From contig CP145424.1 of the NCBI GenBank assembly GCA_036867785.1, forward strand, positions 682,001-746,000: a stretch of DNA of 64,000 nt. The letters run 5' to 3'. The notes under the pieces are model-generated. The model was given only the letters and a program-made list of their open reading frames with translations. It made no database searches and was not told the origin of the DNA. The stretch is from Plasmodiophora brassicae (lineage: Eukaryota). This document shows positions 42,735 to 56,166 of this stretch, piece by piece; position 1 is the first letter of the stretch, and every line of letters starts with the position of its first letter. Both the position numbers and the translations under genes were made by a program.

Positions 42735-43904
42735 CTATATGTACGATAGGTTGCCAAGGTCGGCATGGGGGGTCCGGCTGTCGCTTTCGTCAACGTCTTC
42801 CAGTTCCGGTTTGTACTCGGCGTGGAGGAAGTAGAGGCCGCAGGGCGGTGCCATGTTCGGCAGGATCGAGCGGTCACGGGCCTCCAGGATACGCTTGACG
42901 TCATCGGGTTCGATGGCGCCCCTGCCAACCTCAACCAGCACGCCCACCATGCTCCTAACCTATGGAATAACGGTAATCAGTACAACGACGACGACATAGC
43001 GACAAGGTTGCTTGTGCACCTGGTGATACAGGAAGGCGTTTGCTGTGACAACAATGTTCAGGAGCGACCCCATCCCAGGGTGCTTTGTCGACCTGACCCA
43101 GATACGTCATTGCATGACAGGCGTGCGCTTGGCAGGCGACCCACTCGAATAGACAATACACGTCCTGTTGCTTGATGTCGAATCTGGTGATCGTCCTTAC
43201 CGGATGCCTGGGCGAAAGGCCCCCCGTCAGCCATCGAGAGGGTGTGCCGTCCCGGAAACCGACCGCCGATACCTGGCCTCACACTTGTGGTCCCGGAACG
43301 ACGAGAAATCATGGGTACCGATCAGGTACTTGCATCCGTCAATCATGCGCTGCACGTCGAGAGTCTCGAAGACATGGTAGACGCGGTTGCGTTCGAAGAT
43401 GGACACCTCGGTGCAGCCGTGCAGGACCCTGTACAGGTAGGTTCGCGATTCGGCCGTCATCCGCGCATGGAATCGCTGTGACACGCGACGGACGTCGGTT
43501 ACGCGAACGTCAGTGAACCGCAGATGCCAGTTCAGCCCTGTCTTCAGGACGTCGGCCGAAAAGGCTTCCTTCTACGACAGCAACGTACGACAGTCAGAGT
43601 GAGTAACCGACGGGGTCCATACGACGCGTACTGCGAGCCCAGTTCTTCGGCACACGCGATCAACATCGACATGGGCGGGTAACGCCAAGGCGTGCACGCC
43701 TTTATCCGTACGGCCGCATCCGACCACAACGCTCGGCTGCTGCCCAGGAAGCATTTTCGCCACGGCGTCCTGCAGGACGCGCTGGACGGTGAACTGGTCG
43801 TCGCGTAACGCCCCGCCTTGCGCCTGCCACCCGTGGTACTGACTGCCGATGTACTGCACGACCAACTTGTACCGAGCCATCCGCGCTGGGCTCAGCAAAC
43901 GCAT
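42735..43904 (-). CDS. truA: tRNA pseudouridine synthase, TruA family, multi-exon
   Basis: RYKLVVQYIGSQYHGWQ, TVQ, GRTDKGVHA (catalytic Asp), FHAR..RTYLY, LIGTHDFSSF, FLYHQVR, MAPPCGLYF. Confidence 0.9.
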
Positions 43905-44225
43905 CAAACCGTCGGGCTTCGTGACGCGGTCCTGCGCAGAGTGCGCCTGCGCAAGTCTCCCACATCGACACGGCCCTAATAAGCCGCCGTTATCTGCGAG
44001 GACGCGCGCCTTAACCCGAAACCGTCTTCAGTTGGGTAGGCTTGTCGCCCGAGGCAGGACGTCGGCATCGTTGTGTTTAGCAGCGACACAATACTGGCCA
44101 GAAGTGCAAGATTCGTATGCAGGAAAGGCTCGGCTCGCTCCAAACGATACTGATGGCGACAGCAACGGTATTCCTCCGCACCCGACACTGGGATGCCTTA
44201 ACACCTGTGGACGGCAACCCAAACG

Positions 44226-44393
44226 AATCGGGACACTGGTGCGACCTCGAGTCCGCAGAGTGCCTTAGATCAGCAATCATAGGGCGCCTCCCACATATAC
44301 CGCGCAACACTGCCGTACGGCGTCCGTGGCGCACCAATCATACATTCTGCTATCTGGCCTTGTCTGGTCTTGTCCGTGTCCTGCGTGCTAATT
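44226..44393 (+). repeat. 5' LTR of outer element (AAT...ATT)
   Basis: Base-for-base identical to 54633-54800 on reading. Confidence 0.93.
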
Positions 44394-44406
44394 GGTTTTG
44401 GGCCCA
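44394..44406 (+). other. Primer-binding site, half-tRNA(iMet)-type
   Basis: GGTTTTGGGCCCA directly after the LTR, one mismatch to the Drosophila copia PBS GGTTATGGGCCCA. Confidence 0.7.
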
Positions 44407-44418
44407 TCCCAAGCCTTA

Positions 44419-44490
44419 CCCCTGTCCCTGTTCCTGTCCCCGTCCCTGTCCCCGTCCCTGTCCCTGTTCCTGCCCCAGCCCCAGTTCCCG
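44419..44490 (+). repeat. Degenerate 6-bp tandem repeat (CCCTGT-like) in outer 5' leader
   Basis: ccctgtccctgttcctgtccccgtccctgtccccgtccctgtccctgttcctg... Confidence 0.8.
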
Positions 44491-44597
44491 TACTGTCCCG
44501 TGTCCCAGCCCGTGTCGTGATCCAGTTCGCGTTGTGACCGCCCGCGCCCCACGCTCGGTTTGTACCCGTCCCTGTCCCCCTGCTCCCGCCGCCCGCA

Positions 44598-45545
44598 ATG
44601 GCGGAGGACTGGAACCAGATCGTCACAAACCTGAACTCTCAGATCCAGCACCTGCAACAGCAACAACAACAACAGCAGCAGCTTCTACAACAACAGCACG
44701 ATCAACTGCTACAACAGCAACAACTACTGCAGCAGCAACCGTCCCCACAACAGCGAATGGTCTCACAGCATCATGTTTCCGAGCCCAAGGTCAAGCTCCC
44801 CCCCATCTACAACGGCGGCCGTGGAGAACTTCGCGGTTTCCTGAACCAAGTCAAGCTGGTTATCACCCAGCGGCCTGCCACCTATGCGACCGACGCTCAG
44901 AAGGTCGCGCTGGTGGGACAGCTGCTGGGTGGTGATGCTCTTCGGTGGTTTAATCCGTTGTTCGAAAAGGACGACGCGGTGCTGACGGAGTTCGTCGCCT
45001 TTATCAAGGCCTTCAAGACAAGGTTCGGTGACCCTCATCTAGCCGAGACTGCGGCACGGAAGCTACAGCATCTTCGTCAGGGCCGAGGCACTGTCGCCCG
45101 CTTCGCGACAGAGTTCCAAAACCTGGTGGCGGACGCCGGGTTCAACGACTCAGCCTGCCGACACATGTTCCGCGCCGGCCTGTCCAGGGACGTGCAGTTC
45201 CTGCTGCTGTCCCTGCCCGTCGCCGAGACGCTTGACGAGCTTGTCATACAGGCAATCCGGTGTGACAACCGCCTGGCCGAGCACCGATCGACCACCGCCC
45301 TCGTTCCTGTCCCTGCTGCCTCCGCCGCCGCAGTGCCGTCCGCTCCTCCCCCAGCCCCGGCCGCCGCGGTTGGGGATCCCATGGTTATCGACGCCGCGAT
45401 CGGCGGTGGGCCCCGCGCGCCCTTAACCCAAGACGAGAAAGATCGCCGTCGTCGCGAAGGCCTATGCCTTTACTGCGGGGTGGCTGGCCATGTCGCAGTG
45501 TCCTGTCCCGTGCGTCCGCAGGGAAACGCCTCCCGGCGTGGCTGA
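44598..45545 (+). CDS. gag: Gag of outer element (Ty3/gypsy, sushi/PEG10-like) with polyQ and CCHC knuckle
   Basis: EPKVKLPPIYNG..LRGFLNQV..KVALV..LLGGDALRW, LRQG..V..FATEF, RRRREGLCLYCGVAGHVAVSC. Confidence 0.88.
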   Translation: MAEDWNQIVTNLNSQIQHLQQQQQQQQQLLQQQHDQLLQQQQLLQQQPSPQQRMVSQHHVSEPKVKLPPIYNGGRGELRGFLNQVKLVITQRPATYATDAQKVALVGQLLGGDALRWFNPLFEKDDAVLTEFVAFIKAFKTRFGDPHLAETAARKLQHLRQGRGTVARFATEFQNLVADAGFNDSACRHMFRAGLSRDVQFLLLSLPVAETLDELVIQAIRCDNRLAEHRSTTALVPVPAASAAAVPSAPPPAPAAAVGDPMVIDAAIGGGPRAPLTQDEKDRRRREGLCLYCGVAGHVAVSCPVRPQGNASRRG

Positions 45546-47757
45546 AATCCCGGTCGGTCGCCACGCCTACCAATACACCTGTTCCATCATGCAACCCCGA
45601 CCACTTCTTTCCCGAGCCAAGTATGATTTCCGCGTCCACCAACCTCGTCGAGCACTTGGACCGTGTCCTAAGCATAGACGTGTCCCTTCAACTCGACAAT
45701 GGCAAGACTGTACAGACGACGGCACTTATCGACTCAGGAGCAACCAACGACTTCATACACTCCGACTTCGCCCGCGCTCACAACGTTCCGCTCACCAAGA
45801 AACCCGCACCGGTAGATCTGGAGGTAATTGACGGGCGGCGGCTACCGAAGGTGGCGCTGGAAACGGCCCCTGTCCGCCTCAGTATCGGCAACCACTCCGA
45901 ATCGATCGTGCTGAACGTAATCGACTCCCCGCGATTCCCGATTATCCTCGGCATGACCTGGCTCTCAAGGCACAACCCGAGCATTAACTGGACACACCGA
46001 ACGATGGAGATTACTCGTGTCGCTCAGGACGCCGCGCGCGAACAGAGCGAACCCAAGGAAGCCATCACAGCCCTAACCTTGCACGACAATGGCGTATTCT
46101 CTCAGCAACCAGACCCACCACCTCAAGACCTCTCGCCACCCACACGACACGAACGGCGGTCGAGGGCCCGTGTTGACAGCGGCAAGGTGCCCTACGCCGT
46201 TCCGCTTCCCGGGGATTGGAACCAAGCCCAGAGTCTCAAGCGTTGGCACCACCGCCTCGGCCACCGTAACCTGCGTGACGTCATCCTGATGGCAAATCAT
46301 GACCTTACCGAATCCATGGAGATCCTGGCACAGAAGGTTGACAGGTTCTGCGAAGGGTGCGCTATCGCGAAAGCCAAGGAACGTCCTTTCCCCTCGGAGT
46401 CCAAAGAAAAACAGTGGAACGTGCTCGAGAGAATCGACGTCGACGAATGCGGACCGCTTCCCGTCGCCTCACTCAAAGGGGAGCGATACTTTATCACGTT
46501 CACGGAATTTGCAACCAGGATGAAATTTACCTTCCTGTTGCACCACAAGAACCAGGCGCTGACCAAGTTCAAGGAGCTCAAGACTCGAATTGAGAATCGC
46601 CTGGAGAAATCCATTAAGATCCTCTTCGGCGACAACGATGGGGTATTCATCAACAACGAGTTCAAGGCGTTCTTGCAGGACAACGGGATCGAGTGGAGAT
46701 CAACGGTGGAGTATTCCTCCAAGCAGAACGGTGTCTCCGAACGGGGACACCTGACGCTCATGGACTCCGGTCGCGCAATGCTCGTACACGCAAGGCTCCC
46801 CAAGCAGTTCTGGGGACCCGCAATTCTGACTGCCAGCCAGGTCCATAATCTCTGCCCCCACCCACGCGATCCCTCGACCACGCCCCATGAAATGCTGTCG
46901 CGCTCGAAACCTGATATCCGCTACCTTAGAACGTTCGGGTGCGACGCATATGGCTACGTCCCGTCCAGCCAGAGAACGAAGCTGGACCCACGCGCCGTGA
47001 AAGGCATCTTCATCGGATATGCAGATCACCAGAAAGGGTACGTCCTCTATCACCCTTCGTCCGGCCTGATCAAGGTGTACCGCAGCGTGACGTTCAGCGA
47101 AGACAGCTTCGGCGGCCGCAGTGCGGACGACGCCCTCGCCGATCCCGAGGAACCTGAGTCTGGATACGACAGCGACTACGTTCCCTCCGGTGACGAACCC
47201 GCTGTCGAGGGGGCGCAGTCCGCCGCAGGCCCCAATGAGGATCCGCGACCTCCCACCGAACGAGCCCGGCGTCTCTCCCGCAAGCCAGACCGTTTAGGAG
47301 ATCCCGTCCACCACGCCTGGATCGCGTCCCTGCAACCTACCAACGACGATCCTATTCACCACATGTGGATAGGTTCCACACATCAATGCGACGACGACGA
47401 TGACGCCGCGCTCAATGCAGATGACCCCGACACTCCAAACACATATGAAGACGCCATGGCAAGTCCCGAGGCAGAGTTCTGGACTAAGGCGATGGCCGAT
47501 GAATTGAAGAGCCTGAAACAGCACAAGACATGGGAAGCCGTGGAGCGACTACCCGTCGGGGCACGCCCCATCGGATGCCGCTGGGTCTACAAGCGCAAGA
47601 TCACCAAGTCAAGTCAGATCCCGCCGGACACCACCTGGGTTCTCCGCCATGACCCCGACGGTGTCACCTCCTACCGGTACAAGGCTCGACTATGCATACT
47701 CGGCTACAGACAGCGCCAGGGGATCGACTACACGAACACCTATGCGCCAGTCGTCCG
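45464..47757 (+). CDS. pol: Outer pol, 5' part (PR, GAG-pre-integrase, integrase, RT N-terminus), expressed by -1 frameshift
   Basis: ALIDSGAT..IILGMTWL..NPSINW protease. WHHRLGH..CEGC, DECGP, GDND, QNGVSER, LRTFGC..KLDPRA..GIFIGY copia-type IN. IGCRWVYK..YKARL..QRQGIDY..TYAPVV copia-type RT, cut by the nested insertion. Confidence 0.9.
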
Positions 47758-47844
47758 TGTGATAACTGAATAAATCCCGAACCCCGCGACGGACTTCGCC
47801 AGTCCGTCAAAGCGTTCGTTGCATCAGCTTGCCTGATCGTGACA
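47758..47844 (+). repeat. 5' LTR of nested chromovirus
   Basis: tgtgataactgaataaat...gatcgtgaca, identical to 53208-53294. Confidence 0.95.
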
Positions 47845-47885
47845 TTTTGACGGACTAACCAACGGTCACCGCCGTCCCGCCCGCC

Positions 47886-47990
47886 CCGTTCCGCCCGCTC
47901 CGTTCCGCCCGCTCCGTTCCGCCCGCTCCGTTCCGCCCGCTCCGTTCCGCCCGCTCCGTTCCGCCCGCTCCGTTCCGCCCGCTCCGTTCC
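47886..47990 (+). repeat. 14-bp tandem repeat (CCGTTCCGCCCGCT) x7.5 in chromovirus 5' leader
   Basis: Directly visible perfect array. Confidence 0.92.
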
Positions 47991-48029
47991 TGCCGTCCCG
48001 TTTCCTGTCCGTCTACCGGTGTGTTCGCG

Positions 48030-48878
48030 ATGACAACGAGCGAGGACCAGATCGCCGCACTGGCAGATCAAGTGCGGGACCTCACGCTCACTGTCAGCGA
48101 CATGCTGCACCAGCTGAAAGCTATGCAGTCCGTAGTGGCCGACCGGGTCGAAGATGCCGTTGGGACAGCGATAAATCGCTCGCTGCCCGACAAGATGCCG
48201 CCGAGCGAGCCGTCGCCGACATCCCGACACATCGTCGACCACCAGATCCACCTGCCCCGCTTTACCGGGCGTATTCGCGACAGTTCCACGAACTCCCGCG
48301 ACTTTCTGAAGTGTCTGTCAAGGACGCTGCAGCTCCCGTCATCGACGACCCGCCTTCCGCCGGCGGCGCACAGCGCCCTTCTTAGATCGCTGGAAGGCCC
48401 GGCGTTGGAAGTCTATTTCGGGCTGCCGGACGACGCCACGATGGCCGACCTGTCCTACGCGATGTCAAAATGGTTTCCGGTGCCGACGTTCGAACAGCTG
48501 GAGGAGTGCTTCGACAACCTCACCCAGACCGAACCTGTCGAAGAGCATGTGTTGATGTTCAACAATTTGTATCAAGCGCTTCAGCGCGCGGATGCAACCT
48601 TCAAGATGAGTTCGGCCCGGCGCGCGTCGAAGTTCCGGAAGTCGCTGCATACTGCCTTGTCGGAAAAACTGTTCGAGGACATGATCACCGACTTCGACGA
48701 GATGGTCAAAAAGGCGAAACACCTCTGCCCGCGCTACCCCGTTCCGAAGGTTGTCGCCGCCGATGCCCGTGAGCGTGCCCGCAAGGACGGCCTCTGCTTC
48801 TACTGCAAAGAAGATGGCCACCGGATCGCGGATTGCCCGAAACGGCCGCCGGTTGCACCGGGAAATGTCCAAGGGTGA
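48030..48878 (+). CDS. gag: Gag of nested chromovirus
   Basis: [35 protein letters not shown] zinc knuckle. Confidence 0.85.
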
Positions 48879-51800
48879 CCGCCAACGGGTTCGCCGGCCA
48901 CCCAGTAAACTCTGCATTGTCATCCGAACCCGACCCTGTTCAAATAAGCGATCTCATGTTTCTCCACGCCCGCTCTGTCCCGCATCTCGTACTTCCGATG
49001 ACCATATACACCGGGTCCGAAAGTATCTCGACAACGGCCTTGATCGACTGTGGCGCGACTAGCAACTTTATCGACTGGTCCTTCGCGCGGCTCCACGTTC
49101 TGCCTACCCGCCCGACGCATCGTCCGATACCTGTCCGCGTTGTCGACGGCCGCCAGCTCGCACCTATATCACAGGAGACTCAGCCGTTGAGAACGACGGT
49201 GGACGCCCAGTTCTCGTGTGAGATCGTCCTGAATCTGATCAATTCGCCGACCTATCCCGTCATCCTGGGTCTGCCCTGGCTAGCCCAGACTAATCCAGAT
49301 GTGGATTGGCGCCGGCGGCTCGTCTCGCCGCGCCAGTGCCCCCCCTCGCCGTCAACGTCAACGCCGACAACTGTGGCGGATCCTGGCCATGCAGAAGCTG
49401 AGACAACCGAGGCAAGCGTGGCTGCGCCACACGACGACTGCCGTTATCCGGCCCTGGACGCCTCTAGTGCAGCTCCGCTCATCGCCCAGGCGCCTGTTAA
49501 CACAAAACAACATCCAGATCCAACTTCCGCACAAGACCTGATCGTGACACCATTGCCGCCTGCGGCCAACGATGAACGCCGGGTGGCAGAGTCCTTGGCG
49601 ACAGCCGCAATTGAGACTCAGGACAAAGCCGCTGGCGACCTGGAAACGGCTGACACCGGTAACACCCCTGCGAACTGCCTCGAGCTCGAATCGTTCCCCG
49701 ACCAGACAGGCTGGCTAACGTCGCCGGCGCGGGAGCAGCGACACAGGCGGGGAGCCGGTCGACGTCTACCAGATTGTCGTTTGGACGACGGTTCCAGGGC
49801 ACGCCAGGTGGTCAGCCTGTTCATGTGCTCATCCATCGTGGCGGCCGCTTGGGCGCTTGCCTTCGTCACTATGTGCCGCGAACCCGCACGCGTCGACCTT
49901 CGTGCTTATCTAAACACGTCATCTGACGACGCCTGTCCGATCGCCCCGCCGAACGCCGGCCCTGACGTTCTAGCCGGAGATGCTCCACAGTCGTCGTGCG
50001 ACGTACGGCCCACGGATTCTAATCAAGGCGACGGGACGCGGATCGACCACGTTCCCTTGCCGGCACCAAGCACTGAAGAACCTCTGGCGGCCAACGTTCC
50101 CATCCATCTAGTCGACGCCGAACCGTTCCTGGACGCACTCATGGACGACGCTCAGTGCTACCTCATCCATTATACGTGGACCGAGGACACCGAGTCAGAG
50201 CAGACGAAGATACCTGAAAAATACCAGGATTTTGCCGACGTGTTCGACGAGGCCACCGCCACATCCTTACCGCCGCACCGCGCCTCTGACTGCTCGATCG
50301 ACCTGAAACCGGGGACGGAGCCTCCATTCTGTCGCCTCTACGGCTTGTCTCCCCGCGAACAGGTAGCCCTCAAGAAGTATTTGGAAGATAACCTCCAGTC
50401 GAACTTCATACGGCCGTCGCGTTCATCTGCCGGCGCGCCGATCCTTTTCGCGAAGAAGAAGGATGGTTCGTTACGGCTTTGCGTTGATTACCGAGGCCTG
50501 AACTCGGTCACCGTGAAGAACCGTTACCCACTTCCGCTCATCGACCAGCTGCTTTCGACACTCGGTCAAGCAACGGTCTTCTCCAAGATCGACCTTCGAA
50601 GTGCGTACAACCAGATCCGCATTCGCGAAGGTGACGAATGGAAGACAGCATTCCGGACACCGTACGGACTGTTCGAGTACCTGGTTATGCCCTTCGGGCT
50701 TGCCAACGCCCCGGCATCCTTTCAAGCCTTCATGAACGAGACATTCAGCGACTTCATTGACCGTTTCGTTGTTGTTTACCTTGACGACATCTTGATTTTC
50801 TCCAAGAATGCTGAGGAACATGAACAGCACGTGCGTTTGGTGCTCGAACGTCTACGCTCCGCGCGCCTGACGGCCAAACTGTCTAAGTGCTTGTTCGACG
50901 CACCGGAGGTCGAATTCCTCGGCTACTTAGTGTCCAAGGACGGCCTCCGGTTGGATCCCAGCCGAGTAGACACAATACTCGCGTGGGCCCCGCCGCGTGA
51001 CCTCCACGGGCTGCAAGTCTTCCTTGGGTTCGCCAACTTCTACCGAAAGTTCATCCCGCATTTCGCGGAGATCGCACTTCCCTTGACGAACCTTACTCGC
51101 GGGGAAACCGAATTTATCTGGAACGAGACTGCTTCGACCGCCTTCGCAACTCTGAAGAGCGCGTTCACACGCGCTCCGGTCCTCGCCCACTTCGATCCTA
51201 GCGTGCCGTGCGAGATTGAAACGGATGCCTCCGACTTCGCCATTGCCATGGTCCTCTCACAACGGGGCCGTGACGGGGACTTACACCCTCTGGCGTTCTT
51301 TTCGAGGAAACTGGACCCCGCTGAGATCCGATATGCGGTCTACGACAAAGAGCTCCTGGCCGTTGTTGCGTCCTTCGAGAAATGGCGCCAGTTCCTGGAT
51401 TCGGATGAACATCAGACACTTGTGCACAGCGACCACCGCAACCTCAAGTACTTCATGACGACCCACAAGCTTAATCCGCGCCAAATCCGATGGTCCCAAC
51501 TGCTTAGCGGCTTCGACTTCATGATTCAGCACCGACCGGGCCGCTTGCACGGTAAACCTGACGCCTTGACGCGCCGCCCGGAGTACGTCCCGACGGCGTC
51601 TGAAGAAGGCATCCTGCAACAATCTCTCCAACTGCTCCCGCTTCATCGCCTAGTTCCGTCCCCCGTGGTGGACGCGTTCACCGTCCACGCGGAGGCGGCT
51701 CCGTCCGAGCCTCTCCTAGACCGTATCCGACGACACCAAGCGAGTGATCCGTTCGTCGCCAAGATTGCCGGTCTGCTCGACCGACCTCAAGGTAGGAAGT

Positions 51801-53194
51801 ATTGCCTGAGAGACGGCCTCCTGTACAAAGGACGCTCCTTGGTCGTCTCCGGAGACGAATGCAAGATCGAGATCCTCCGGCAACTCCACGATAATAGGGC
51901 CTCTGGTCACTTTGGTATCCGCAAAACGCTTGGGCTTGTCCAGCGTGAATTTTGGTGGCCTGGCATGAGGGCCTTCGTCAAACTGTACGTCTCATCCTGC
52001 GACATTTGTCAGAGAAGCAAGTCTCCGCGCCACAAACCGTCCGGGCTCCTGCTGCCTCTTCCCTTGCCGAGTTCTCTGTGGTCATCGATCTCAATGGATC
52101 TAATTGTCAAGCTTCCAGTTTCCGACGGCTACGATTCGGTCCTCGTCGTCGTCGACCGGTTTTCGAAAATGGCCCACTTCATTCCGTGCAAGGAGACCCT
52201 CACAGCGGTCGAGCTGTCCGACCTGTTTTTGCAGCAGATATTCCGCCTGCATGGCCTACCGGACGACATCGTCTCCGACCGGGGGCCCCAGTTCGTGTCG
52301 GCCTTCTGGAAGCACTTACTGGACCGTCTTGGTATCCAACGGAACTTGTCTTCATCCCGGCACCCGGAATCCGACGGCCAGACGGAACGCGTGAACCAGA
52401 TCCTCGAACAATACTTACGCTGCTATGTTAGCTACATGCAGGACGACTGGCTGCAACTTCTGCCTATGGCCGAGTTCGCGTACAACAACGCCGACCATTC
52501 GGCCACCGGCATGTCGCCGTTTTTCGCCAACTACGGGTTTCATCCAAGGGTGACGGAGCCTCGACCCAGGAATGGCCAAGTCTGTAACCCAGCCGCCGAT
52601 GAGCGTGCCGAATTCCTTGAGAAGGTTCGCCGCTACTTGAAGGGCCAACTGCAACGGGCGGTCGACGCTATGAAGCGCTCTGCGGATCGCCGTCGCCGCG
52701 AACCACCACCACTGCAGGTGGGCGATCTCGTCATGCTCAGGCGTGGAACCTTATCGACTGGCCGCCCGTGCGGGAAACTGGATGACCGTCTGCTGGGACC
52801 CTTCCAAGTTGTTCGCACAGTTAACCCCGTCGCATACGAAGTGAAGCTGCCTCCTACCTCGCGCCTACATAACGTCTTCCATGTGTCACAGCTGGAACCG
52901 TATACGCCTAATGTCCTTCCACATCGCCAACAGCCACCGCCGCCGCCCATTGTATTGGAAGATGACGACCAGCCCCTGTTCATCGTTAAGTCGATCTTGG
53001 ATTCCCGATACCGGTCGGGGCGGTTGCAATATCTCATAGATTGGGAAGGATACTCCCCGTCCGATCGCACCTGGGAACCCGCGGGCAATCTCCATGGGAC
53101 AGGAGGCCTGGACCAAGCGATTGCTGAATTTCATGCTCGATATCCCGATAAACCTGGCCCTCGCTCCCGAAACCGGCGGAGACCCAATCGCTAG
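48833..53194 (+). CDS. pol: Pol of nested chromovirus: PR-RT-RNaseH-IN-chromodomain, -1 frame to gag
   Basis: [63 protein letters not shown]; chromodomain [19 protein letters not shown]. Confidence 0.95.
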
Positions 53195-53207
53195 AAGAGG
53201 ACTATTC

Positions 53208-53294
53208 TGTGATAACTGAATAAATCCCGAACCCCGCGACGGACTTCGCCAGTCCGTCAAAGCGTTCGTTGCATCAGCTTGCCTGATCGTGACA
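53208..53294 (+). repeat. 3' LTR of nested chromovirus
   Basis: Identical to 47758-47844. Confidence 0.95.
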
Positions 53295-53299
53295 GTCCG

Positions 53300-54689
53300 G
53301 AGCGACATCCTCCGTCTAGTACTAGCCCTGTCCGTCCAAGACAAGGAGATCATCGCCGAGCAGATGGATGTGATGACCGCATTCCTCAACGCCCACCTCA
53401 CCGAAGAGATCTACATGGACTCCCCGAAAGGGATGAAGGCCAGAACCCGTTTCGTCAAGCTCCTACGATCGATCTATGGCCTGAAACAGGCCCCAAGAGA
53501 ATGGTTCAAGGTCATCGACGCCTTCCTCGTTAACGAATGCGGGTTCCAACGAGCCAAGTCCGCATCGTGCTTGTACTTCAAACGTGGTCCAACTGGACAG
53601 CTCGTCATTGTTGGGGTCTACGTCGATGATATTCCCATCGTCGGACATCCCGAACTCGTACAGGAAACCAAGTCAGCCCTCTCGAAGAGATTCAAGATGT
53701 CGGACATGGGAGAGCTTCAATCAGTCATTGGCTTCGACGTCGATAGACAAGGTAGATCGGTGTTCCTGTCGCAAGAACGCTACACGAAAACTATCCTCGA
53801 CACCTACGGCATGGCCGAATCGCGCCCCGTCTCGACACCGGCAGATGCGAACTTGAAGTTATCCACATCACTGTGCCCGCAGAACCAGGCCGATCGCGAA
53901 CTTGCCGCCTTAGAAGGCCAGCGCATCAACTATCGAGCAGCGGTAGGTCACCTAATGTGGCTGCTGCACACCCGGCCAGACATCGCCTATGCGGTGAACG
54001 AGGTCTCCCGATACGTGCAAGACCCAGGGCCAGCGCACTTCGTCGCGCTGAAGCGAGTCTTCAGGTACCTCAACGGCACTCGCAACTACGGCCTCCTGTT
54101 CGAAGGAGGTGGGGAAACGGCCACACCGCTCCTGGTCGGCTACTCCGATTCTGATTGGGGTGGAGACCTCGACACACGACGATCGACTTCGGGGTGCGTG
54201 TTCCTTCTGAATGGCTGCCCGGTTTCATTTCGCTCTAAGAAGCAGACCACGGTCGCGTTATCGTCGTGCGAGGCGGAGACGGTGGCGTCAACACTCGCGG
54301 CAACAGAAGGCGTCTGGTTGCGCAATGTGCTGGACGAACTAGGTTTTCCACAAGCTCAGCCTACACCTCTACACGTAGACAATCAGGGGGCGATCGCGTT
54401 CGCCAACAGCGAAATCAACCACAGCAAGATGAAACATCTCGCGCTCAAGGACCACTTCGTCAGAGAACTGGTGGCATCCAACCAGATCAAGGTGCACTAC
54501 GTCCGCTCGTGCGAGAACCTCGCCGACATCTTCACGAAACCGCTCGGAAAGCACAAGTTCGTAGAATTCCGTGCGGCCCTCAAGTGCGTACCGCATCCCC
54601 ACATGAACTTGGACTCTCAGGTCGAGGGGGGGAATCGGGACACTGGTGCGACCTCGAGTCCGCAGAGTGCCTTAGATCAGCAATCATAG
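53300..54689 (+). CDS. pol: Outer pol, 3' part (copia-type RT and RNase H)
   Basis: QMDVMTAFLNA, LLRSIYGLKQAPREW, VYVDD, TRPDIAYAV, GYSDSDWG..RRSTSG, VALSSCEAE, DNQGAI, ENLADIFTKPL. Confidence 0.93.
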
Positions 54690-54800
54690 GGCGCCTCCCA
54701 CATATACCGCGCAACACTGCCGTACGGCGTCCGTGGCGCACCAATCATACATTCTGCTATCTGGCCTTGTCTGGTCTTGTCCGTGTCCTGCGTGCTAATT
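54633..54800 (+). repeat. 3' LTR of outer element
   Basis: Follows the PPT and is followed by TSD AAACG. Confidence 0.93.
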
Positions 54801-54932
54801 AAACGGCCCTGCACCACTGACCCCATCCAAGTGCAGTATCCTGGCCATACCCCACTGTGTGCGCCTACTATACTGGGCATGCCTTCCGCCGAATCGGCGA
54901 CCACACGGTGTCATCCCAGCACCGTCCGTTAA

Positions 54933-56166
54933 TCAATGGATTCGTTGACAAGTACCAGAAAAGATGTCGGCGCTGATAAGCACAGCGAGAATCAGAAGAG
55001 CCGGAACAAGCGATAGTCGCGTCGTGTCCATCCAAATTTGAACCGGGCTCCATGTCATTGCCCTGGCATCCGTTACTTCTGCATCATCAGGTACTGTGAT
55101 AATGACGTGAGCGGGCACTTCCTCTGGCTTCTTGGCAATGCCAACAACCGATCCCGCGGTGGCAATTTCGTAGCTGGGCGGGTTGTCCCAGATCCAGTTC
55201 AGCAGGTACGCCAGACGCACGCCGCCCTTGGCGAGCTGAACGTCCACGCTGTCCTGGTGCCGCATGTAGTATTCATCGCACAGGTCGAAGCCGTCCACGA
55301 TATCGTTGCCCAATTCGTCCCGGTTGGCACTGGCGGAGAGCAGCGCCGTATCCATCGCCCACAACCGGCTGCATTCGTCGAACGTGCGGCAATCGATCCA
55401 GGATGCCGTTGACCAGTTCCCGGTTCGCACTCGCGTGACAATCGATTCAATGTAACTCGCTTTCGACTTCCTAAACGATGTTCGAATGCGGCGCTGGATC
55501 AGCAGGTCATCCCAGATTTCGTGCAGGTTTGTCTGTCAATCCACAATGACTGATCCAGGCCCCAATTTCGAACGTGCGGATGTACCTTTCGACGGCAGAA
55601 CCGCCCGCGCTCATTGTTTCCTCCACGGTTGTTGCGCGTTGAGATGTGAAGCGGCTAACACAATCACCCGCTGAGTCGTACGAGAATGCACTGTGGCACC
55701 GAGGCGCTCGCGGACCTGATTGATGTCACCCAGGTAGTGGACGAGGAACTTCAGGTCGATGTACGACGATTCAGGATCGGTCCGCGACAGCAGCCTCGAG
55801 GAATAATTGGCAATGGCTGCCGTCAGGCATCGTCCTTTCGGGCAGATGAGGTCGACGTTGACGTGGTGCAACGGAGACGTCCAGCCCCACCCGGCCTGAT
55901 GCTTGATCTTATCGGCCCACGATGCGACATTTTCCATCCGCCCGCCATCGTTCGCCAGCATTGCGCTAACGTCAAACGCAACGTTCTCGTTGAGAAACCT
56001 GCCAACGTTCAACAGATCAAACCGTGAGCCTGCATGCAGCACAACGTGCACGGTCGTACTCGTGTGCAATTGCTGCAGTGATTTCGTGACCGACATGGCT
56101 CCAACCTTCGACATCGACGACACCGAGGGCAATGACCGCCACGACAGCAACGACGACAGCCACCAT
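54933..56166 (-). CDS. S1/P1-family nuclease with signal peptide and C-terminal hydrophobic anchor, multi-exon
   Basis: MVAVVVAVVAVIALGVVDVEG|WSHVGH, ASWADKIK, SPLHHVN, FLVHYLGDINQ|PLH, GGN, NLHEIWD, QLAKGGVRLAYLLN. Tail LSLVPALLILAVLISA. Confidence 0.85.

Follow-up and report, generated by a model that had tools for sequence, protein, structure and literature searches.

The 64,000-nucleotide (nt) stretch of Plasmodiophora brassicae DNA analysed here, referred to as the window (assembly GCA_036867785.1, contig CP145424.1, positions 682,001 to 746,000 of the forward strand; GC content 61.7%), contains at positions 44226-54800 a long terminal repeat (LTR) retrotransposon, of which a single copy is seen within the window. 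Ty1/copia and Ty3/gypsy are the two great families of LTR retrotransposons (Pseudoviridae and Metaviridae, respectively), and the element combines parts of both. Judged by its sequence, it is a copia element with regard to its reverse transcriptase (RT), integrase (IN), RNase H (RH) and domain order, and a chromovirus with regard to its gag gene, its frameshift site and its protease (PR), and it lacks defining features of both families. A second retrotransposon, a Ty3/gypsy chromovirus, is nested within this outer element and flanked by its own GTCCG duplication (47753-47757 and 53295-53299). Excision of 5542 nt, corresponding to the nested chromovirus and one copy of GTCCG, leaves the outer pol in frame and restores ..YAPVVRSDILRL.. 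inside the RVT_2 match. The preliminary description of this DNA, which was made from the sequence without database searches, had proposed one continuous pol in the order PR-IN-RT-RH after removal of the nested element, and this is what we find. The outer gag starts with the ATG at 44598 and ends with a stop codon at 45543-45545, and the -1 frame, which holds pol, stays open from 45266 to 47757 and from 53295 to 54689. As the two LTRs are identical at 168 of 168 positions, the AAACG target-site duplication is perfect and the reading frames are open save for the nested insertion, the insertion in the window is recent and whole.

The enzymes encoded in the 3' part of the outer pol are of the Ty1/copia type. 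The integrase matches the Pfam models gag_pre-integrs, rve and SH3_retrovirus, and the RT matches RVT_2 on both sides of the nested insertion. No Pfam model matched the RNase H region, for which approximate limits were taken from the alignment with relatives (Table 1). Along the pol protein, RVP_2 covers residues 150-252, the integrase residues 322-615, and RVT_2 starts at residue 788 and continues in the second piece. The motifs WHHRLGH, QNGVSER and LRTFGC in the integrase, YKARL, YGLKQAPREW and YVDD in the RT and YSDSDW and ADIFTKPL in RNase H, on which the earlier assignment to copia had been based, are all present. Chromoviruses are characterized by RVT_1 and RT_RNaseH and by the order PR-RT-RH-IN; in contrast, the RT of the outer element matches RVT_2 only, RT_RNaseH is absent and the integrase precedes the RT. 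The Integrase_H2C2 finger and the chromodomain are likewise found by Pfam in the nested element, which matches RVP_2, RVT_1, RT_RNaseH, Integrase_H2C2, rve, SH3_Tf2-1 and Chromo, and neither of the two is found in the outer element.

On the other hand, gag and protease of the outer element are of the Ty3/gypsy type. Only Ty3/gypsy models, namely Retrotrans_gag, DUF4939 and Ty3_capsid, match gag, which is a separate open reading frame (ORF) as previously noted, and the protease matches RVP_2, Asp_protease_2 and gag-asp_proteas. Neither the copia gag model (Retrotran_gag_2, PF14223; the UBN2 kind is equally missing) nor the copia protease model (Pol_BBD, PF22936) gave a match to the outer element at E<=0.1, in line with the earlier statement that no copia protease is present. 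The motifs KLPPIYNG..LRGFLNQ and RRRREGLCLYC in gag and TTALIDSGATNDFI, IDGR, PIILGMTWL and NPSINW in the protease could all be retrieved. The protease had been aligned by eye with that of the nested chromovirus; BLASTP gave 34% identity over 187 amino acids with an E-value of 4e-26. The proposed -1 slippery site G GGA AAC lies in the correct register close to the end of gag, and the nested chromovirus possesses the heptamer G GGA AAT three codons upstream of its own gag stop. Similarity to gypsy elements stops near pol residue 254 and the copia-type gag_pre-integrs match starts at residue 322; the breakpoint between the two types is therefore located in the linker between protease and integrase, which is not conserved.

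Table 1. Features of the outer retrotransposon and of the nested element (positions are those of the window).
Feature	Position	Strand	Basis
5' target-site duplication AAACG	44221-44225	+	Matches the 5 bases at 54801-54805
5' LTR, 168 nt, termini AAT..ATT, not TG..CA	44226-44393	+	100% identity to 54633-54800
Candidate primer-binding site, TGGTTTTGGGCCCA..	44393-44410	+	Similar string TGGTTATGAGCCCA upstream of the L001 gag
CCCTGT-like short repeats, 5' untranslated leader	44411-44494	+	Sequence; skipped as repeat in contig mapping
gag ORF, 315 amino acids, Ty3/gypsy-type capsid and one CCHC knuckle	44598-45545	+	Retrotrans_gag 6.6e-15, DUF4939 1.4e-9, Ty3_capsid 2.3e-9 (PF03732, PF19259, PF16297); alignment to L001 gag
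-1 frameshift heptamer GGGAAAC, read G GGA AAC in the gag frame	45521-45527	+	5 codons before the gag stop
Predicted hairpin, 8-bp stem GGCGUGGC/GCCACGCC, gag stop in loop	45535-45567	+	Starts 7 nt past the heptamer
Protease domain, gypsy/chromovirus type, active site LIDSGAT	45680-46027	+	RVP_2 1.1e-7, Asp_protease_2, gag-asp_proteas (PF08284, PF13650, PF13975); alignment, profile
Unconserved linker with gypsy-to-copia breakpoint	46016-46226	+	Alignments, Pfam, profile
Integrase, copia type: HHCC, D,D35E core, SH3-like C-terminal domain	46229-47110	+	gag_pre-integrs (PF13976) 2.1e-7, rve (PF00665), SH3_retrovirus (PF25597) 1.1e-25
Copia-type RT, start (RVT_2 positions 17-61), cut by nested insertion	47627-47757	+	Pfam
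Nested Ty3/gypsy chromovirus with chromodomain, not part of the chimeric element	47758-53294	+	87-nt identical LTRs, Pfam
RT, remainder (RVT_2 positions 59-242), YVDD	53295-53843	+	RVT_2 (PF07727) 6.6e-40
RNase H region, YSDSDW .. ADIFTKPL, approximate limits	54100-54570	+	Alignment to relatives
Polypurine-rich tract GGTCGAGGGGGGG, adjoining the 3' LTR, overlaps conserved pol C-terminus VEGG	54620-54632	+	Sequence, alignment
3' LTR, pol stop inside at 54687-54689	54633-54800	+	168/168 identical to 5' LTR
3' target-site duplication AAACG	54801-54805	+	Copy of 44221-44225

The same gene arrangement is kept in distant relatives. Five database proteins (P0079-P0083) show 42-49% identity over 90-95% of a PR-IN query and carry the same fusion, and the four long members among them extend through RVT_2 and RNase H. 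A metagenome scan yielded two contigs, L001 and L002, with the same kind of PR-IN fusion. L001 encodes a gag of 307 amino acids, which is 35% identical to the gag in the window (E 1e-54) and is assigned to the same Pfam families. The heptamer G GGA AAC is found five codons before the stop of this gag, and the pol of L001 lies in the -1 frame. In L002, the end of gag with G GGA AAT at the same five-codon spacing is followed by PR and IN. Since gag, the G GGA AAY heptamer and the protease are all held in common with gypsy elements, the shared block comprises gag, the frameshift site and the protease together. A search for longer relatives returned classical copia proteins matching the integrase and gypsy proteins matching the protease, and none matching both; a representative search mostly gave copia integrases and added the fragments P0197, P0145, P0137 and P0141. 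The gag search gave only three weak matches among the 8000 candidates scored, which is probably explained by the Q-rich start of gag using up the search words. In the Atlas, the nearest clusters of at least 50 members are all classical copia (Pol_BBD, gag_pre-integrs and rve), which is a lead, not proof, that the fusion of a gypsy protease with a copia integrase is rare.

To compare both halves of the element with the two families, 291 collected proteins were sorted by RT type, giving 27 proteins with a gypsy RT and 207 with a copia RT. A profile built from six proteases of the lineage, that is the window element and the relatives sharing its fusion, scored 45-101 bits on all 27 gypsy-RT proteins. 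Among the 207 copia-RT proteins it scored high only for the five members of the lineage, the best other protein reaching 11.7 bits. With a profile of two lineage gags, 12 gypsy proteins gave 73-147 bits over most of the gag length and copia proteins at most 13 bits, the match to the latter being confined to the zinc-knuckle end. The copia proteins had been gathered via their integrases and carried their own proteases along, and the contrast between the lineage and copia proteases is strong even though the gypsy sample is not neutral (see below).

Some further observations concern these two proteins. At the active site of the protease, the triplet D-S-G is found in the window and P0080, D-D-G in L001 and L002, D-N-G in P0082 and D-G-A in P0081 and P0083; the latter two lack the usual glycine position, which may reflect an inactive enzyme or an alignment shifted by one residue. 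The gypsy proteins with a gag most similar to that of the lineage (P0107-P0112, up to 147 bits) have proteases that group with records from carp-family fish (Cirrhinus, Labeo) at 99/98, so that, within this small set, the best gag scores come from outside the fungi. Records named Ustilago are among the gypsy relatives found.

In RT-RH, the window element is 54-64% identical to P0079-P0082, 46.6% identical to P0150, which is a classical copia protein, and at most 43.6% identical to other copia proteins. A tree of RT-RH (IQ-TREE, 44 rows, rooted on four gypsy rows, bootstrap not fully settled) recovered the lineage as a clade with 100/100, the lineage together with P0150 with 100/100, and the split between copia and gypsy with 100/100; a 90-row FastTree gave the same placement. 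P0150 possesses a copia-type gag (Retrotran_gag_2, 1.9e-9). Because the lineage forms a fully supported clade with a classical copia protein as its equally supported sister, the tree points to one old replacement of gag and PR, and these sequences are most simply explained by a classical copia ancestor whose gag-PR gave way to a block from a chromovirus. The preliminary description had read the identical LTRs and the perfect duplication as recent transposition of the hybrid as one unit. This holds for the insertion; the recombination itself is old, as members of the lineage are only 54-64% identical in RT-RH. Altogether, we consider it very probable that the element inserted recently and belongs to an old and still mobile lineage, in which the gag-PR of a copia backbone was replaced once by a block from a chromovirus.

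To each of two alternatives we assign a very small probability. Related copia elements could have gained a gypsy block several times independently, so that the shared architecture would be convergent. P0080 indeed falls outside the main cluster of the lineage in the free protease tree, at a fork that is not resolved. However, holding the eight lineage proteases together in one clade gave a slightly better likelihood than the free tree (approximately unbiased (AU) test, p 0.534), the position of the breakpoint, the heptamer and its spacing of five codons to the gag stop are all shared, and the RT-RH clade is fully supported. Alternatively, there was no recombination, and the lineage split off early and retained the gag-PR ancestral to copia and gypsy, classical copia elements having changed later. 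In favour of this, the deeper branches of copia are not resolved in the tree, and copia and gypsy proteases are remote homologues, two copia proteins giving faint but correctly placed matches of 10-12 bits. Such a history is just as improbable in our view, since in the tree rooted on gypsy the lineage is the sister (100/100) of P0150 with its copia gag and hence not the first copia branch. In addition, gag and PR are 34-47% identical to those of living chromoviruses or score about 100-147 bits against them, whereas the RT-RH branch separating copia from gypsy measures about 4 substitutions per site, and the slippery heptamer matches that of a chromovirus, too. A Ty3/gypsy element of the Gmr1 kind, with its integrase moved in front of the RT, would account for a gypsy-type gag and PR alongside the order PR-IN-RT-RH, but it is refuted, to the point of leaving next to no probability, by an RT that matches RVT_2 instead of RVT_1, by an integrase with gag_pre-integrs and SH3_retrovirus instead of Integrase_H2C2, SH3_Tf2-1 or Chromo, and by the 100/100 grouping of RT-RH with copia.

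Copies of the outer element are present in other sequencing runs. For twenty runs from ten studies, the fraction of sampled words from 44226-47757 that is present is 0.92 or more, and one of these runs may be the source of the DNA in the window. Some of the matching runs are labelled 'plant metagenome', and none of them is listed as RNA, 'RNA?' marks being guesses. Logan contigs of four runs (X2, X4, X5 and X6) were mapped on 43800-55200. In X2, X4 and X6, a contig passes directly from 47752 to 53295, five bases at the joint matching either side, and thus represents the outer element without the nested one; one example is record 11 of X4, with 3664 nt, which runs from 45591 to 47752 and continues from 53295 to 54794. 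The joint was not seen in X5, where the loose letters before 53295 correspond, by reading, to window positions 47736-47752. In the copy in the window, pol is broken by the nested element; uninterrupted copies are found in X2, X4 and X6. The PR-IN linker is covered in all four runs, by single contigs in X2 and X4 and by a contig spanning 45626-46222 in X5 and X6. Beyond the 3' LTR, the loose ends differ from the flank in the window: X2 and X4 share one sequence, which begins exactly at 54801, and X6 has another, which indicates that other insertion sites exist. Taken with the identical LTRs, the duplication and the open gag and pol, these further copies at other sites mark the element as autonomous and recently mobile. 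The junction between PR and IN, which the preliminary description had suggested should be sought beyond this copy, is thus found in P0079-P0083, L001, L002 and the contigs of four other runs, and a post-insertion rearrangement or a mis-assembly is therefore removed as an objection. That the junction is a local accident of this kind, for which one could cite the single copy in the window, is refuted by its presence in proteins and contigs of just 42-49% identity and in four other assemblies as well as by the identical LTRs and perfect duplication that enclose the whole unit, and has practically no chance of being correct.

Several points weigh against the replacement of a copia gag-PR by a chromovirus block in a still mobile lineage. 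The analysis covered sequence data, which bear on protein expression, frameshifting, processing and transposition only indirectly. Hairpins are predicted 5-7 nt downstream of the heptamer in the window, L001 and L002, but they are no better than those of shuffled sequences, the z-score of -1.64 for the window not being significant. The gypsy proteins used for comparison were gathered by their match to the outer protease and are thus not a neutral sample, and full gags of the lineage number two. In the 44-row tree, which does not resolve the deeper copia branches, the sister relation to P0150 is the only well-supported placement, and the Pol_BBD match of P0150 itself lies below the Pfam cut-off (20.6 versus 27 bits). 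With 36 rows and 122 columns, the tree of proteases is poorly resolved and names no donor clade, and the protease data do not reject a single origin of the swap, which is as far as they go. Furthermore, depths of the contigs are not copy numbers, and 0 differences in 168 nt limit the age of the insertion only loosely.

We propose that the backbone of the lineage is a Ty1/copia element, with the order PR-IN-RT-RH, copia-type IN, RT and RH and a 5-bp duplication, and that, in a single ancient event, a contiguous chromovirus-type Ty3/gypsy block took the place of the original gag and protease. The acquired block would have consisted of a gag with one CCHC knuckle, the G GGA AAY site near the gag stop and the protease, with a 3' breakpoint between PR and the integrase zinc finger. 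Gag would be translated alone, and some ribosomes would slip by -1 at G GGA AAC to produce a Gag-PR-IN-RT-RH polyprotein; the efficiency of this step, like the processing steps and the primer used, is inferred. The gypsy-type capsid would need to package the copia-type RT and IN together with the RNA, and the gypsy-type protease would cut a polyprotein in which the downstream junctions border copia-type enzymes. Reverse transcription and integration would follow the copia scheme. We speculate that the hybrid arose either by template switching between co-packaged RNAs or by recombination after one element had inserted into another, as seen for the nested pair in the window.

With its nearest classical relative P0150 and with Ty1/copia elements (Pseudoviridae) in general, the outer element shares the pol order, the integrase domains, RVT_2 with YVDD, an RNase H ending in ADIFTK and the 5-bp duplication. 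It differs from them in that gag and protease are not copia-type and that gag and pol lie in separate frames joined by a -1 slippery site. It resembles chromoviruses in its Retrotrans_gag/Ty3_capsid/DUF4939 gag with one CCHC knuckle, in the G GGA AAY near the end of gag and in its RVP_2 protease. A precedent for the uncoupling of superfamily and domain order is Gmr1, in which all domains reportedly stay gypsy-type and the order alone has changed. Unlike in Gmr1, which combines a gypsy-type RT and IN with an IN placed before the RT, the RT and IN of the outer element are copia-type, and its domains come from two superfamilies. Gmr1-like gypsy elements appear in the reference list of PMC2774666.

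Published surveys of fungi either based their classification of copia elements on features of RT and RNase H or left out mixed structures (PMC5445492, PMC3248453). Donnart 2017 (PMC5445492) defined fungal copia clades on a profile of pfam07727 (RT) and on ADxxTK at the 3' end of RNase H and filtered out 'chimeric structures', and the 'complex transposons' of Muszewska 2011 (PMC3248453) are multiple insertions into one locus. By its RT alone, the lineage could already be within a published fungal copia clade that was defined on RT with its gag and PR left aside, and the additional files of Donnart 2017 might list it. In the literature searched, which did not extend to supplements, Repbase or subscription journals, we found no description of a gypsy gag-PR joined to a copia IN-RT-RH, and an earlier description may exist. 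With somewhat better than even confidence, we suggest that no stable recombinant lineage between Metaviridae and Pseudoviridae had been recognised before this one, in which a single ancient swap of capsid, frameshift signal and protease was followed by diversification to about 45% protein identity and which is still transposing.

If this is true, copia enzymes can be enclosed by a capsid and processed by a protease of gypsy origin, and LTR elements of different families can exchange their structural and replicative modules. The classification of LTR elements and of the corresponding virus families relies mainly on RT and the order of domains and assumes that gag and protease go with them. A living lineage of this kind breaks the assumption: the capsid-protease module can pass between families that are barely alignable in RT. 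It is also a natural test case for the features of its partners that a retroelement protease and capsid must recognise, such as cleavage sites, packaging and the choice of primer. Real families may be lost where annotation pipelines treat elements with mixed domains as nested or chimeric artefacts, and the history told by gag may differ from that told by RT, also for domesticated capsid genes. The hybrid is of interest to specialists in mobile elements and retroelement evolution, and it is not a new kind of system.

The following minor features were observed at the ends of the two elements. The bases after the 5' LTR of the outer element are conserved between the window and L001 and may resemble the complement of the anticodon arm of an initiator tRNA; a search of the window for tRNA genes found none. 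Ty5 and Drosophila copia are primed from an internal half of initiator tRNA-Met (PMC5371799, 10.1101/2025.04.25.647736). Like that of the outer element (44411-44494), the leader of L001 contains short tandem repeats. At the other end of the outer element, pol translates through the polypurine tract into the 3' LTR, with VEGG encoded by the purine run itself, and the pol proteins of relatives end in VEGGS or VERGN. Compared with the window, the contigs of X2 and X4 lack 1 nt at 54626 and have 3 extra nt after 54641. In the nested chromovirus (47758-47857 and 53208-53294), the LTRs measure only 87 nt, and the 10 bases after the 5' LTR (TTGACGGACT, around 47847-47856) are the reverse complement of AGTCCGTCAA within the LTR, an arrangement that may resemble self-priming of the Tf1 type rather than priming by a tRNA. 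The leader of this element contains, at 47858-48002, about nine tandem copies of a 14-nt unit.

The outer element sits between two ORFs on the minus strand that look like host genes, located at 43572-44027 and 54933-55535. By eye, the first resembles a pseudouridine synthase, and the second gave only weak Atlas leads to S1/P1 nuclease clusters, none scoring above 0.80. In run X5, a 33-kb contig stops within the 5' LTR, at 44249.

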